Below are positions 33,565 to 50,841 of a stretch of DNA of 64,000 nt, in pieces; position 1 is the stretch's first letter; the number at the start of each line of letters is the position of its first letter. The stretch lies in sequence record NC_023593.1. One strand, 5' to 3'. Under the pieces are notes generated by a model. That model was not told where the DNA came from. It did no database searches and saw nothing but the letters and a program-made list of their open reading frames with translations. Both the position numbers and the translations under genes were made by a program. This DNA comes from Escherichia phage KBNP1711.

Positions 33565-34206
33565 TTAAGACCCTTGGAATTCTTCTTTGTCGAAGTGCTT
33601 CTCTACCACATACTCATACAGATCTTTATACTCTGCATAACGACGGTAGAATGTACCGTGTGAGATGCCTAATTCTTTCTGAATGGAATCGTGAGGGATA
33701 CCTAAGAAGAGCATTGAGAACATGCTTGCGAGCTTCTGTGTGTCCATTGTATCACTCAAATCTTGGAAGAAGTAGAAGATACGAGATTCCATGAAAGGGT
33801 CCCCAACTGAATCATGCTTATTAACTGCATATTCCAGAGGACCTTCTGAGTAAATGTCAGGGTTGTTAAACATATCTGCTTCTGGAATAGCATAGATACG
33901 TCGATCACCAACTGTCTGTCGATTAGAACGGATAGACCAGATGATATTCTTCACACGATAGGTCATGTGCTCAATCTCTACCTCACCTTCTAGTAGAAGC
34001 TCTTCTTGCTTGGAATAGATGAAACGCCAAGCATTAAGCAACACCTCTTGAGCTACATCCTCTGCTTCATGATAGTCACGAATGTCGTACATAAAGAATT
34101 TGTGAACCACTTTCCAGTTCACCTTATAGAACTCATCGAAGGTTGGGAAGTATTTGATTGGAATACCGTGAATACGATACCGAGTAGGTGTTGTTTTCTT
34201 AGCCAC
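33565..34206 (-). CDS. ECF-type sigma factor-like protein
   Basis: Region 2-like '[16 protein letters not shown]'; region 4-like HTH '[17 protein letters not shown]'. Confidence 0.5.
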
Positions 34207-34949: not shown

Positions 34950-34975
34950 CGAAAAAAGCCACCCGAAGGTGGCTA
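34950..34975 (-). terminator. rho-independent terminator (- strand)
   Basis: 'agccacc cgaa ggtggct' hairpin with U-run on the - strand. Confidence 0.5.
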
Positions 34976-34996: not shown

Positions 34997-35737
34997 TTAG
35001 AACGGAGATTCGTCTTCTTCAAAAGTAGACTCAGGCTCACGGTCGATAGTAGGGATAGAAGCAACCGGCTCTTTCTGCTCGTTCTCAGAAGCCTTAGTGA
35101 CTTCACGACCAGCGAGAGGAATGTTCTTAGCGTCATTAGCTTGGGTAAGCAGGTTACGCTGGAATGGGAAGATTACCTGGTAAGCAGCTACGTTATCATC
35201 TGTTTCAGCATACGGTTCGAAGAAGACCAAAGGACTGCGAGCAGCAGCAACAGCTTCACGATACTTGGTAGGAATCGGAGTAATCTGTTTGATAGAATTC
35301 TTAACTTCACCAGCTTTGTTGGTGTAAGAGTTAATCAGAACGTTTACAGGCTGACCTAACAGCATTTCTTTAAACCAAGCTAAATCACCTTTCAGTGCTT
35401 GGATGCTAGGGTCAACCATCTTAATTAGGTTGAGAATACCAGAGTTCTTAGCTCGTGGGTTTACATCGAAGCTCTTAAATTGACATGCAGGGCGCGGGTC
35501 AAGAGCGTTGCCTTCAGAGTCCTTACCGGTTGCATCAACACTAATCAGTTCAAACGCCAAGTCCATACGGAAAGCTGGGTTCTTAGGAGTAACTGCTTTA
35601 GTTTTAGGGTCAACCCAAGGGTCACGATTGTGAACACCAAGACCAACAACACGAACGATACGAGCTTCGTACTCACCATCAGGGATTACGTCGTAGTTGG
35701 ATTTACGGGAAACGGACATAGTTGGGATAGAAGACAT
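34997..35737 (-). CDS. single-stranded DNA-binding protein-like
   Basis: Acidic C-terminal tail ending in Phe ('EEDESPF'), as in SSB proteins. Confidence 0.45.
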   Translation of the reverse strand: MSSIPTMSVSRKSNYDVIPDGEYEARIVRVVGLGVHNRDPWVDPKTKAVTPKNPAFRMDLAFELISVDATGKDSEGNALDPRPACQFKSFDVNPRAKNSGILNLIKMVDPSIQALKGDLAWFKEMLLGQPVNVLINSYTNKAGEVKNSIKQITPIPTKYREAVAAARSPLVFFEPYAETDDNVAAYQVIFPFQRNLLTQANDAKNIPLAGREVTKASENEQKEPVASIPTIDREPESTFEEDESPF

Positions 35738-35794
35738 ATTTTAATTTCCTTATTTAATTTAAGATTGTTGCTCACTTTGAGCGGTTATGTATAG

Positions 35795-35803
35795 TATACA
35801 TTA
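35795..35803 (-). promoter_or_regulatory. TAATGTATA motif (- strand)
   Basis: + strand 'tatacatta'; 58 nt upstream of SSB-like gene start. Confidence 0.4.
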
Positions 35804-35866
35804 CACCTATACCGATAAGAGTGCTATGTAGTATAAGCATCAGTGGTAGTAGATATTGACTACTAG

Positions 35867-35875
35867 TAATGTATA
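35867..35875 (+). promoter_or_regulatory. TAATGTATA motif (+ strand, faces away from flanking genes)
   Basis: Exact motif in the 414-bp intergenic region. Confidence 0.3.
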
Positions 35876-35970
35876 TATTGTATAGATGATAATTCTATTG
35901 CAGGCTTGTATATTGGGCAATTCTCAGAATCCCTTGCAAGTACCGAAGGGCAGGAGACACCTGCGAGATA

Positions 35971-36038
35971 AAAATAGAGAATTAAGGAATCCTTGATTTA
36001 GGTTGTGGGGACTCCTAGGGACTTTGATTCTCTATTTA
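35971..36038. repeat. inverted repeat flanking a 45-nt spacer
   Basis: 'aaaatagagaat' ... 'attctctattt'. Confidence 0.4.
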
Positions 36039-36151
36039 AAAGATTAATAATTACTTACTACCTAAATAGTTAACTAACTTACTTAAACCAAATTCAATAA
36101 TAATAGATAAAAAGATTATTCCTAAGAAAGCTAAGATGTAAAGAACATAAG

Positions 36152-36319
36152 TTACCATTCCATCATTCCTTTTAATCTAGATTCTTCTACTATTCGCTGA
36201 TAAAGTAAGTTAGATTCAGCTTGATCTTTTAATATCTTACTATATTGATCTCTGAGACTATCTTTATAAACAACAGGTGGTTTAAATAGTGATGATACCT
36301 TGTTCTTTTCTTCTTTCAT
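36152..36319 (-). CDS. hypothetical small protein
   Basis: Track ORF 36152..36403 trimmed to an internal Met. Confidence 0.25.
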   Translation of the reverse strand: MKEEKNKVSSLFKPPVVYKDSLRDQYSKILKDQAESNLLYQRIVEESRLKGMMEW

Positions 36320-36788
36320 CAAAGGTCTTCCTAATCTCTTGCAGAGATACAGCTTTAAAGTTGATTTGTTCCATCGAAGTACAGAAGTATCTCCAATCAT
36401 CAATCACATGATTATGAGTATGAGCATAGATGTTGAACTTCCCTCTCATTTCATCAGAGTGAATAGGAATGTGAGTTACCCAAAACTCTTTGTACTTGAA
36501 GTCACCTGATACAGTTCTGAACACTTTCATAATCTGTGGTAATAAATCCAGCCTGTCATGGTTCCCTAAGACAAGATGTTTCTCACCCTTAATCTCATAG
36601 ATGATATCCAGTGCATATGGTTCAAACACCCAATCACCAGTAAAGAAAGTCTTATCACGTTTAGTCACATGGTCAAACGCTGAAAGAATTGCTTTGTCAT
36701 GTTCTTCAATACTGCCGAACTGTTTACGAAACTTGCAGATGTTACGATGACCTAAGTGACCATCTCCTGCGAAATATACCTCAGCCAT
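36282..36788 (-). CDS. metallophosphoesterase (calcineurin-like)
   Basis: 'GDGHLGH', 'GDWV', 'GNHD', 'HTHNH' metal-binding motifs. Confidence 0.65.
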   Translation of the reverse strand: MAEVYFAGDGHLGHRNICKFRKQFGSIEEHDKAILSAFDHVTKRDKTFFTGDWVFEPYALDIIYEIKGEKHLVLGNHDRLDLLPQIMKVFRTVSGDFKYKEFWVTHIPIHSDEMRGKFNIYAHTHNHVIDDWRYFCTSMEQINFKAVSLQEIRKTFDERRKEQGIITI

Positions 36789-47558: not shown

Positions 47559-47630
47559 TTCACTCTCTCCTGTTTAACACAATATTCTTATACTGTATAT
47601 ACATTTGAGAGTGATCATATCTACTACCAA

Positions 47631-49011: not shown

Positions 49012-50292
49012 TTAATCTGTGATACTGTCGCTTTCGTCAACCCAGACTGGATTATTAATCTGTCCTAAACGACGAGCTGATGTTTCGTTAATAGAGTTAA
49101 CCCCTGCTGTGCGAGGGTTTGTGTACCACGGTCGGACTATGCTACCCGACTGAATTGCTTGGTTTGCTTCTACATGCCACCTGTTTGATACCGTGTTGGC
49201 TTCAAAGTTACCACCCGCTCCACCACTGATAGGCACAGCTTGAGCTGGTTGATTTACTCGGTTAGTTCCTGCCCCAAAGGCTGCTGCAAATTCAGACACA
49301 CGTGCACTAAATGAAGAACGAGCACGCTGAGGAGGTGATATATCATTTCGTGTATCTACTGCACGAGGCATAGCCCAAGTATCATCTGTTGAGATATCAG
49401 GGGTAGGCTCTTGCTCTAGAGGTTGAAGATTAGCTGTCCATTGACTATTCAGTATACGATAGAAATCTGCACCATAACCACTTCGGATAACATCCTCTCT
49501 GACACCAAAGAAGCGACTGATATCCCCACCGATTCGGGCTAGTTTGTCATTGTATGCAGGTATGATTATTCCACCCTCTGTCACTAAATCAGAGACACGA
49601 CTTGTTGTAAGTGGTGAAGTGATCCAACAATAATAATCAGTAATGTGACCATCGTATCCGAAGAATGCAATCTCTGCATCAGGCCATTTCTTGTGGACAT
49701 ATGCCACTTCACGGTTAGAACAAACAGGGATTGCACCTGTTTCAGTCATTGCATAGAAGCCGTCAGAAGAGAACCAAAGTGAATCTAGTGCTAAGAATCC
49801 ACGACACACGCTCGGGAAAGTAGCAGCCAGCGCCCCAAGTGAGGTAGGTTCATTGAACATTAACTGAATCTTTGCACTCTGATAATTAATCTCTAGGATA
49901 TCTACAAAATTCAAAGAAGACCCAGGGGCATATTGATTATTACTTCGTCCAATATCCTGCTCAATGAGAAGAGATCTTGTTTCAACACCATGAGCCTCTG
50001 CCCACTCTTTGAAATCTTCAAGGAACAAGCGAGCCTTAGCTCGCCACATCGACCGATCAGTTACAGACTGTCTCGGCAATCCACCCTCTGTAGTGATGAG
50101 AAAGATATCAATGTCGTGAGGTTCACGCGTCTGAAAGATTGCATCCCTAACAGCACCACCTGCAATGATAGGGTACACACCATCAGGGATTAAACGGTTT
50201 GCAATCAACTCGTTAATTAACGTAAGACCAGACACAAGCTGCGGACTATCATCAATCCGACGACGAATTAGTGCATTAGGGATATTATACAT
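49012..50292 (-). CDS. nucleotidyltransferase (CCA-adding/poly(A) polymerase head-domain type)
   Basis: 'IIAGGAVRDAIF...HDIDIFL' matches the 'GGxVRD...DxD' active site. Confidence 0.5.
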   Translation of the reverse strand: MYNIPNALIRRRIDDSPQLVSGLTLINELIANRLIPDGVYPIIAGGAVRDAIFQTREPHDIDIFLITTEGGLPRQSVTDRSMWRAKARLFLEDFKEWAEAHGVETRSLLIEQDIGRSNNQYAPGSSLNFVDILEINYQSAKIQLMFNEPTSLGALAATFPSVCRGFLALDSLWFSSDGFYAMTETGAIPVCSNREVAYVHKKWPDAEIAFFGYDGHITDYYCWITSPLTTSRVSDLVTEGGIIIPAYNDKLARIGGDISRFFGVREDVIRSGYGADFYRILNSQWTANLQPLEQEPTPDISTDDTWAMPRAVDTRNDISPPQRARSSFSARVSEFAAAFGAGTNRVNQPAQAVPISGGAGGNFEANTVSNRWHVEANQAIQSGSIVRPWYTNPRTAGVNSINETSARRLGQINNPVWVDESDSITD

Positions 50293-50841
50293 TTACATTT
50301 TCCAATATAAAGATGGGGGGTCATTTGGGTCAAAGTTTGCAATATGGCAAAGATATTTATAAACCTTAACCGTTAAGTTTACGTCCTGTTCACAATAAGT
50401 AAACATGTCCTCTGTAAAGGCATCCCATGCTTCTTCCTGTTCACCGTAATCACCCTTAAGCTCTTCTAAGAACTCACCCCATTGCTTTAAGCCATGACCT
50501 CTTGGGCCATGTCTAGGGTCGCCTTTCGGATACTCAGGACTGTCACCAATACGGTCAGGTTTAAGATACCGACTCAGACATAAAGTGTCTAGGACGTTGA
50601 ATTTGTAATCAATCAAATCAGGGTACATCTTCTTCAGAGCACATAAGTCGAAGTCAATAACGTTATGACCTACAACAACATCAGCCTCTGTAAGTTTCTT
50701 GATACCCTCTTCAATCTGGTGAGGGCGAAATCCCCACCGTTCACCAGTTGATATATCGAAGATAAAGATACACCATACGTTTGTGATATTGTCGTACAGT
50801 GCATCACTCTCAATATCAAATGCGTAGACTTTCTTTACCAC
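50293..50841 (-). CDS. DnaQ-like 3'-5' exonuclease
   Basis: Exo I 'YAFDIESD', Exo II-like '[11 protein letters not shown]'. Confidence 0.55.

Follow-up and report, generated by a model that had tools for sequence, protein, structure and literature searches.

Which function is encoded in the largest non-coding stretch of the 64,000-nucleotide segment of Escherichia phage KBNP1711 (NC_023593.1) analyzed here, in the following called the window? An initial annotation, made from the sequence alone, had described it as an intergenic region of 414 bp with promoter motifs on both strands, two hairpins and an inverted repeat. As possible functions it had proposed the expression of a small non-coding or antisense RNA, or a switch between early and middle transcription. 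Comparison with related phages favored the RNA. Our preferred explanation, to which we assign a probability of about 0.6, is that the gap consists of two back-to-back transcription units dependent on the phage sigma factor gp36, of which the unit on the plus strand would produce an as yet unannotated non-coding RNA of ~157 nt. The coordinates of all features are summarized in Table 1.

Genomic context of the gap

By sequence comparison the window was assigned to a phiEco32-like podophage of the Gordonclarkvirinae. A region of 1.3 kb around the gap showed 96% identity to the Escherichia phages EP335 and KarlSchell_Bas89, and ~85% identity to phiEco32, SU10, NJ01 and some 90 other Gordonclarkvirinae podophages. 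Annotated relatives have a common gene order on the minus strand, consisting of gene 40, the gap, the small genes 41 and 42, and a phosphoesterase gene. The gap is indeed the largest non-coding stretch of the window, but its true length is 313 bp (35738-36050) instead of 414 bp, because the adjoining sequence is occupied by the conserved gene 41. Homology with phiEco32 and SU10 assigns the genes flanking the gap to the middle class, which in SU10 comprises CDS 25-68 (PMC4281155). As both flanks are of the middle class and the minus strand motif represents the published middle promoter P40 (see below), the proposed switch between early and middle transcription found no support.

For the protein encoded by gene 40 no sequence match was found in Pfam or PDB, and one record annotates it as an ssDNA-binding protein. 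It ends with an acidic C-terminal tail (...EEDESPF), which resembles the ends of the ssDNA-binding proteins of bacteria and T7 and would fit this annotation. P40 and gene 40 form a compact unit, since a canonical intrinsic terminator is found just downstream of the gene. The parts of this unit are P40, a leader of 51 nt containing a small hairpin, the open reading frame and the terminator with its UUCG loop.

On the other side of the gap, gene 41 encodes a strongly hydrophobic peptide, which is found in some genera, cleanly missing in others, and abuts the 3' hairpin of the RNA module described below. Its stop codon is located 13 nt from this hairpin. In relatives of the Paul/EK010/XT32 type the open reading frame is missing, and unrelated sequence adjoins the hairpin. 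Further upstream on the minus strand, the phosphoesterase gene of the window (168 aa, 36282-36788) is overlapped by an 83-aa open reading frame in another frame (36152-36403, minus strand). A single phosphatase open reading frame of ~206-212 aa is present in the corresponding region of Paul, XT32, EK010 and 101114BS3, and the arrangement of the window and of EP335 looks like a frameshifted or split version of it. ARAGORN detected neither tRNA nor tmRNA genes in the window. Kuravirus-like phages were reported to carry one tRNA-Arg(TCT) (PMC9965538), which here presumably sits in the ~13 kb of the genome outside the window.

Table 1. Features in and around the gap upstream of gene 40 (positions refer to the window).
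Feature	Position	Strand	Remarks
Terminator of gene 40	34957..34974	-	canonical intrinsic, close behind gene 40; stem-loop AGCCACC-TTCG-GGTGGCT with T-run TTTTTT
Phage sigma factor gene	33565-34206		gp36 homologue; few genes downstream of gene 40
Gene 40 homologue	34997..35737	-	246 aa; phi32_40 family, PHROG 6599
Predicted 5' UTR of gene 40	35738..35788	-	from P40 start (~35788) to ATG; start deduced from the AATGTA = -14..-9 rule (PMC12276001)
Small hairpin in gene 40 5' UTR	35770-35782	-	GCUCA-AAG-UGAGC
-10 element of P40	35795..35803	-	TAATGTATA; known gp36-dependent middle promoter
-35-region element of plus strand promoter	35845..35855	+	GGTAGTAGATA at -37..-27; 11-nt spacer to the -10 motif; includes -37G and -34A
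-10 element of plus strand gp36-type promoter	35867..35875	+	TAATGTATA; AATGTA at -14..-9, element covers -15..-7; predicted start A35882
Predicted ncRNA	35882..36039	+	~157 nt; 5' end from promoter geometry, 3' end from conservation stop and hairpin
P1, 5'-terminal hairpin	35882..35898	+	AUAGA-UGAUAAU-UCUAU; begins at +1
Variable central domain	35899..35949	+	type A in the window
Invariant hairpin	35950..35964	+	GCAGG-AG(A/C)CA-CCUGC
Linker	35965..35971	+	GAUAAAA; on the minus strand part of the run UUUUUAUCU after the big hairpin
66-nt irregular hairpin	35972..36037	both	nearly invariant; encloses CCTAGG
Gene 41	36051..36158	-	35-aa hydrophobic ORF, phi32_41 homologue; PHROG 24970, E = 3e-22; annotated in relatives

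A known and a predicted gp36-type promoter in divergent orientation

The element tAATGTAtA was experimentally defined as promoter element of gp36 (PMC4331800, PMC4281155, PMC8948821 Table S3). The published gp36 promoters are located upstream of the genes 6, 13, 26, 40, 58 and 68 (PMC4331800; PMC8948821 Table S3; SU10 Table S2). In the window 6 exact copies of TAATGTATA were found versus 0.48 expected, a 12-fold excess which was reached by none of 100 shuffled sequences. The gap carries the motif on both strands, precisely where the initial annotation had placed it. The two promoters had been called opposed; they are divergent and stand back to back, not facing one another. The minus strand copy corresponds to P40, as this is the published gp36 promoter upstream of gene 40. 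The previous observation that the plus strand motif serves no plus strand gene holds, as it is directed opposite to every neighboring gene and no open reading frame follows downstream.

In gp36 promoters AATGTA occupies the positions -14 to -9 (PMC12276001). A promoter of this class is expected to direct initiation by the RNAP-gp36 holoenzyme 6-8 nt downstream, with stimulation by gp79. The cryo-EM structure of the gp36 open complex on P68 revealed contacts to -37G, -34A, -12T and -11G, with -37G and -34A bound by R187 and Y186 of the C-terminal domain of gp36, and mutation of these four bases abolished or compromised transcription from P68 (PMC12276001). All four contacted bases are present at the plus strand site of the gap. 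Since GGTAGTAGATA at -37 to -27 supplies -37G and -34A in addition to -12T and -11G, the site represents a full copy of the validated promoter P68. In order to compare the -35 regions, all motif sites of the window were lined up. Only two exact copies of GGTAGTAGATA became visible in the 64 kb, one at the plus strand promoter and one at the P68-like promoter (47618-47628, minus strand). Both occupy the positions -37 to -27 of an AATGTATA motif with a spacer of 11 nt, and the published P68 of SU10 carries the identical arrangement. P40 is devoid of this element, which is therefore not universal among gp36 promoters. A further AAATGTATA at 50286-50294 on the minus strand, without GGTAGTAGATA, may represent one more promoter of the gp36 type or a match by chance.

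The plus strand motif was invariant in an alignment of 17 sequences. The composite promoter pattern with its fixed geometry of 31 nt was present in all 35 gap-spanning Gordonclarkvirinae loci retrieved, apart from one locus on a 68-kb metagenome contig (L032; ERZ1034915 NODE-75, 1240-1260). There, the sequence reads TAATATATA, with an exchange of G to A at -11, and the body of the RNA is intact; this might be either a natural promoter-down variant or an assembly error. A second metagenome contig (L033) has a changed -10 element, TAATGTACA. The plus strand promoter appears in none of the published lists compared (PMC4331800, PMC8948821 Table S3, SU10 Table S2). One of these promoter-list studies confined its search to the strand carrying the downstream gene (PMC4331800). 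Sigma-70 promoters were considered for the module as well and were discarded, as the candidate hexamers were not kept in relatives.

A conserved block extends from the predicted promoter to a large hairpin

The gap was aligned from 17 relatives, then from 22, and finally from 30 distinct versions of the module taken from GenBank, IMG/VR and metagenomes. A conserved block with sharp boundaries became visible. Its left edge is the -35 element of the plus strand promoter, and on the right it ends at position 36037 with the large hairpin's 3' arm. Beyond this arm Paul, EK010, XT32, AnnaHegner and ECBP2 carry unrelated sequence. On the left side, phages of the ES17/L006 type have an insertion of ~150 bp immediately next to the -35 element, with a 47-aa open reading frame on the minus strand. 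In this subgroup (L013 = ES17, 860-1030; L006; L028-L033) the insertion separates P40 from the RNA module, and the ATG of the open reading frame abuts the -35 element. Were this frame expressed, the entire RNA module would be covered by its antisense leader, implying read-through of the big hairpin on the minus strand.

Comparing the window with phages of the phiEco32, SU7, PAS59 and LAMP types, the block showed 92-96% identity and its 3' half 98-100% across three genera, versus ~82% for gene 40 and the phosphoesterase gene over the same comparison. A second comparison gave 92.7% identity for the gap and 85.5% for its surroundings. All 97 GenBank records with a close gene 40 also matched the gap, and each genome carries one copy of the module. 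Searches with the covariance model R1 yielded no match in relatives with 64-67% identity in gene 40, nor in the Grimontviridae relatives examined (7-11, ECO319P1, Proteus and Cronobacter phages). In these phages, the gaps upstream of gene 40 comprise only ~75-150 bp. Within the block, indels of 1-3 nt break the reading frames and no open reading frame is common to the relatives; the block is therefore not protein-coding.

Structure of the predicted RNA

The RNA predicted for the plus strand begins at +1 with the hairpin P1, the stem of which varies among the phages in a compensatory way. It is AUAGA/UCUAU in the window, AUAGC/GCUAU in SU7 and AUAGU/ACUAU in ECBP2, and MN05 and ev_rybdy3 have AGAGUU/AACUCU. 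In total, 2 pairs are changed on both sides, and a G-C pair is replaced by G-U in 10 of 22 sequences. The phiEco32 group, which is the largest, carries AUAGC/GUUAU, and the G-U pair formed here corresponds to an A-C mismatch on the minus strand. Covariation was found in P1 only. The other 28 pairs were invariant or showed an isolated wobble, mismatch or gap in these very similar sequences, and covariation was not observed there because the positions never vary. The helices other than P1 are purely thermodynamic predictions.

Several results point to the plus strand as the strand on which the structure is formed. Standard pairs were kept in 130 of 132 cells of P1 on the plus strand versus 120 on the minus strand, and for the big stem in 346 versus 301 of 351 cells. 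Overall, the plus strand pairs better than the minus strand in P1, P2 and P4. The minimum free energy of the plus strand was ~3.5-10.5 kcal/mol below that of the minus strand in 17 of 17 sequences. Among the alignment columns, 12 of 58 unpaired and 13 of 100 paired positions were variable, which is no significant excess in the unpaired ones (p = 0.26). RNA folding, recommended by the initial annotation as a check, yielded a strong signal for the 66-nt hairpin, with z-scores against dinucleotide shuffles of -4.0 on the plus and -4.7 on the minus strand; for the whole RNA the z-score was modest (-1.7 on the plus and -2.2 on the minus strand).

Downstream of P1 follows a variable central domain. 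A longer, unrelated-looking version of it, type B, was found in 12 of ~97 GenBank relatives and at this locus only. The initial annotation had proposed a hairpin of the form ccctt...aaggg (35931-35950) for the end of this region. It can be drawn, but it is missing from the minimum-energy folds, and phages with the alternative central domain lack the CCCTT arm. The neighboring hairpin GCAGG-AGACA-CCTGC was found as described before. Its CCUGC arm has an alternative, mutually exclusive long-range pairing with UUGCAGG at 35898-35904, which is possible in type A as well as in type B.

The inverted repeat is likewise present, consisting of two arms of 14 nt (35972-35985 and 36024-36037) with 93% complementarity which enclose CCTAGG at 36014-36019. 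It forms the base of the 66-nt irregular hairpin. The lower stem of this hairpin has 16 bp including 2 wobble pairs on the plus strand (-24.5 kcal/mol) and 11 bp on the minus strand (-18.2 kcal/mol). With an AU-rich stem of 11-16 bp and an interior of 45 nt it differs from typical Rho-independent terminators, in which a short GC-rich hairpin with a loop of 3-8 nt is directly followed by a U-run, and a simple terminator scan yielded 0 sites in 35300-36700. A U-run after the hairpin is present on the minus strand (UUUUUAUCU) and partial on the plus strand (UCUAUUU). In every phage the hairpin closely follows the stop codon of whichever minus strand gene lies upstream. We propose the hairpin as the 3' end of the plus strand RNA; for the convergent minus strand operon it may act as an atypical terminator or 3' stabilizer.

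Database and partner searches

Rfam searches gave no match at gathering score in the window and none at E <= 10 in 35650-36250; with the loci of three relatives, among them type B and phiEco32, only chance-level matches were obtained. An RNA at this locus is not mentioned in the papers on the SU10 genome, 7-11, the gp79/gp36 structure, Kuravirus taxonomy and BASEL. The module had no match in 5,426 complete E. coli genomes (blastn, E <= 10). An 18-mer of the hairpin matched GTDB genomes at 34 scattered sites, about the number expected by chance, and none of these fits the covariance model. Pattern scans of IMG/VR recovered only four known Kuravirus-like contigs.

Searches for an RNA partner among the phage mRNAs of the window showed no signal. 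Complementary 10-mers to the phage sequence numbered 20 versus 23 expected from shuffles, a single 12-mer was at about chance level, and the duplex energies with 231 translation-initiation regions were no better than those of shuffled RNA. The idea of a sponge for CsrA was dropped, as 4 GGA motifs (counted by eye) versus ~2.6 expected (calculated by hand) do not constitute an enrichment.

Proposed model and alternative explanations

Based on these observations we propose the following arrangement. In the leftward unit, gene 40 is transcribed from the published middle promoter P40 (predicted start ~35788), and the unit ends at the canonical terminator (34974-34957). The rightward unit would be transcribed from the promoter composed of GGTAGTAGATA and TAATGTATA by RNA polymerase with gp36, starting at A35882 and yielding the ~157-nt plus strand RNA. 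From 5' to 3' this RNA would consist of a protective hairpin, a swappable central domain, the invariant GCAGG/CCUGC hairpin and the irregular 3' hairpin of 66 nt, at which it would end through weak termination or processing. On the minus strand the same hairpin, followed by UUUUUAUCU, probably ends or stabilizes the convergent upstream operon; if it ends this operon, expression of gene 40 would rest on P40. The motifs with their geometry and conservation, the edges of the conserved block, the lack of coding potential and the covariation in P1 are direct observations. From these we infer that RNA polymerase with gp36 initiates here, that the RNA ends at the hairpin, and that it acts in middle or late infection as a stable molecule which a protein or RNA partner recognizes by its sequence. 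Recognition of the sequence rather than of the structure alone is suggested by the near-invariance of both stems and loops in the 3' half.

The conserved block could also serve the minus strand only. The hairpin and UUUUUAUCU would then be a terminator, or an RNase III-type processing or 3'-stabilizing hairpin, of the operon from gene 41 onward, the rest would be the upstream region of P40, and the plus strand motif would be silent or interfering. The region is certainly transcribed on the minus strand, a good U-run follows a hairpin with a z-score of -4.7 on this strand, and the constant location of this hairpin just past a minus strand stop codon is in agreement with such a function. However, an invariant and complete plus strand promoter with the -35 element of P68 would be left unexplained, as would the conserved 90 bp between this promoter and the hairpin and the coincidence of the block boundary with the -35 element. 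The G-U pairs of P1, which turn into A-C mismatches on the minus strand in the largest phage group, do not fit either. Moreover, the other minus strand terminators of the phage are of a clearly different type, with short, GC-rich hairpins that in some cases have a UUCG loop. Finally, the minus strand open reading frame of the ES17-type phages lies downstream of the hairpin, so that termination there would be incomplete in these phages if the frame is expressed. Taken together, we regard a pure minus strand element as unlikely. Only marginally less probable is an origin of replication resembling oriF/oriG of T4 or the primary origin of T7, in which the transcript of the orphan promoter would serve as a primer or form an R-loop beside a stretch of AT-rich, readily unwound DNA. 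The promoter is an orphan, phage-specific and directed against all neighbors; both sequence types found to the right of the hairpin are AT-rich; the site maps to 36.7 kb in the 77.5-kb phiEco32 genome (~47%), near its middle; and the genes for DNA polymerase and the putative SSB are nearby. Against an origin, neither iterons nor repeated boxes were detected in the region, where only short two-copy repeats at chance level occur, and the GC skew just tracks gene orientation without an origin signal at the gap. The AT-rich stretch downstream shows no sequence conservation, and an origin has no obvious need for a 5' hairpin covarying at the RNA level or for a near-invariant 66-nt hairpin.

The plus strand transcript might further be a long cis-antisense RNA, since the hairpin is not a canonical plus strand terminator. 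Read-through from 35882 into genes 41 and 42 and the phosphoesterase gene would down-regulate the operon in late infection via collision or via RNase III cleavage of duplex RNA, in the manner of OOP of lambda acting on cII. The promoter is convergent with the upstream operon, and no canonical plus strand terminator is found within the next 100 nt downstream. This explanation seems improbable to us, slightly more so than an origin, as the hyper-conserved block stops exactly at the hairpin, whichever gene follows, and as it offers no reason for a non-overlapping part conserved to 98-100% or for the structured 5' hairpin. The idea that the gap encodes a missed small protein derives from records which annotate open reading frames of 47-64 aa, among them minus strand frames across the promoter region in phages 4E8 and 101114BS3, and from a 36-aa plus strand frame in the window (35886-35996). 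The ATG of the latter is CTG in phiEco32-type phages, and with every frame broken by indels and no frame shared among the phages, we rejected a small protein as highly improbable. The predicted plus strand RNA remains our preferred reading, with a probable minus strand function of the 66-nt hairpin as part of it.

Relation to known systems and significance

With its AATGTATA core, GGTAGTAGATA and 11-nt spacer the plus strand promoter resembles P68 of phiEco32 from the class P6, P13, P26, P40, P58 and P68. Unlike the listed gp36 promoters, it is directed opposite to all neighboring genes, has no open reading frame downstream and is predicted from sequence. The OOP RNA of lambda is a 77-nt antisense RNA which is convergent with cII and overlaps its 3' end, with a decay that depends on RNase III. 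As with OOP, a short phage RNA would be transcribed from its own promoter, convergent with a coding operon, and would share a hairpin region with the 3' end of this operon. In contrast to OOP, the predicted RNA is twice as long, highly structured and mostly intergenic, and its expression in a virulent phage would depend on a phage sigma factor; Rfam revealed no sequence similarity. The 66-nt hairpin is similar to bidirectional intrinsic terminators in being placed between convergent units and flanked by an A-run and, on the opposite side, by a T-run. It differs from them by its AU-rich stem and its structured interior of 45 nt, was not recognized by the simple terminator scan and is distinct from the canonical terminators of the phage.

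The origins oriF and oriG of T4 and the primary origin of T7 combine a phage-specific promoter with an AT-rich unwinding element downstream, and the transcript primes replication. The present locus shares with them a gene-less phage-specific promoter followed by AT-rich DNA close to replication genes, but here the AT-rich DNA is separated from the promoter by a conserved segment predicted to form a structured RNA. Virulent phages are also known to encode stable small RNAs, such as the pRNA of phi29 and the species 1/2 (C/D) RNAs of T4. Like these, the RNA predicted here would be a discrete, structured RNA of a lytic phage in the range of ~120-175 nt and conserved in its group, with no similarity to them in sequence or model. 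A phage-encoded small RNA with a dedicated promoter is a known kind of element; the promoter and the RNA predicted here are absent from the lists and papers compared.

Somewhat speculatively, we put forward that the RNA constitutes a new phage RNA family, the first ncRNA expressed from a gp36 promoter, with a dedicated sequence-specific role in the middle or late phase. This broader proposal is clearly more doubtful than the existence of the RNA. Possible roles include the priming of a central origin, the titration or guidance of a host or phage protein, and the control of gene 40 or of the sigma operon. An RNA with a dedicated role, if it exists, would explain why the 3' half is conserved to 98-100% across three genera, compared to ~82% in the neighboring genes.

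phiEco32 serves as the model for sigma factors encoded by phages, and the structure of its gp36/gp79 switch is known at the atomic level. On the phiEco32 map, each of the six gp36 promoters serves genes. One more, without a gene and driving a hyper-conserved structured RNA, would add an RNA component to this transcriptional program. The Gordonclarkvirinae have been described as understudied, abundant and defence-resistant (PMC11990801). If the proposed explanation is true, it would provide a new element for this subfamily of phages and a new RNA family for their annotation.
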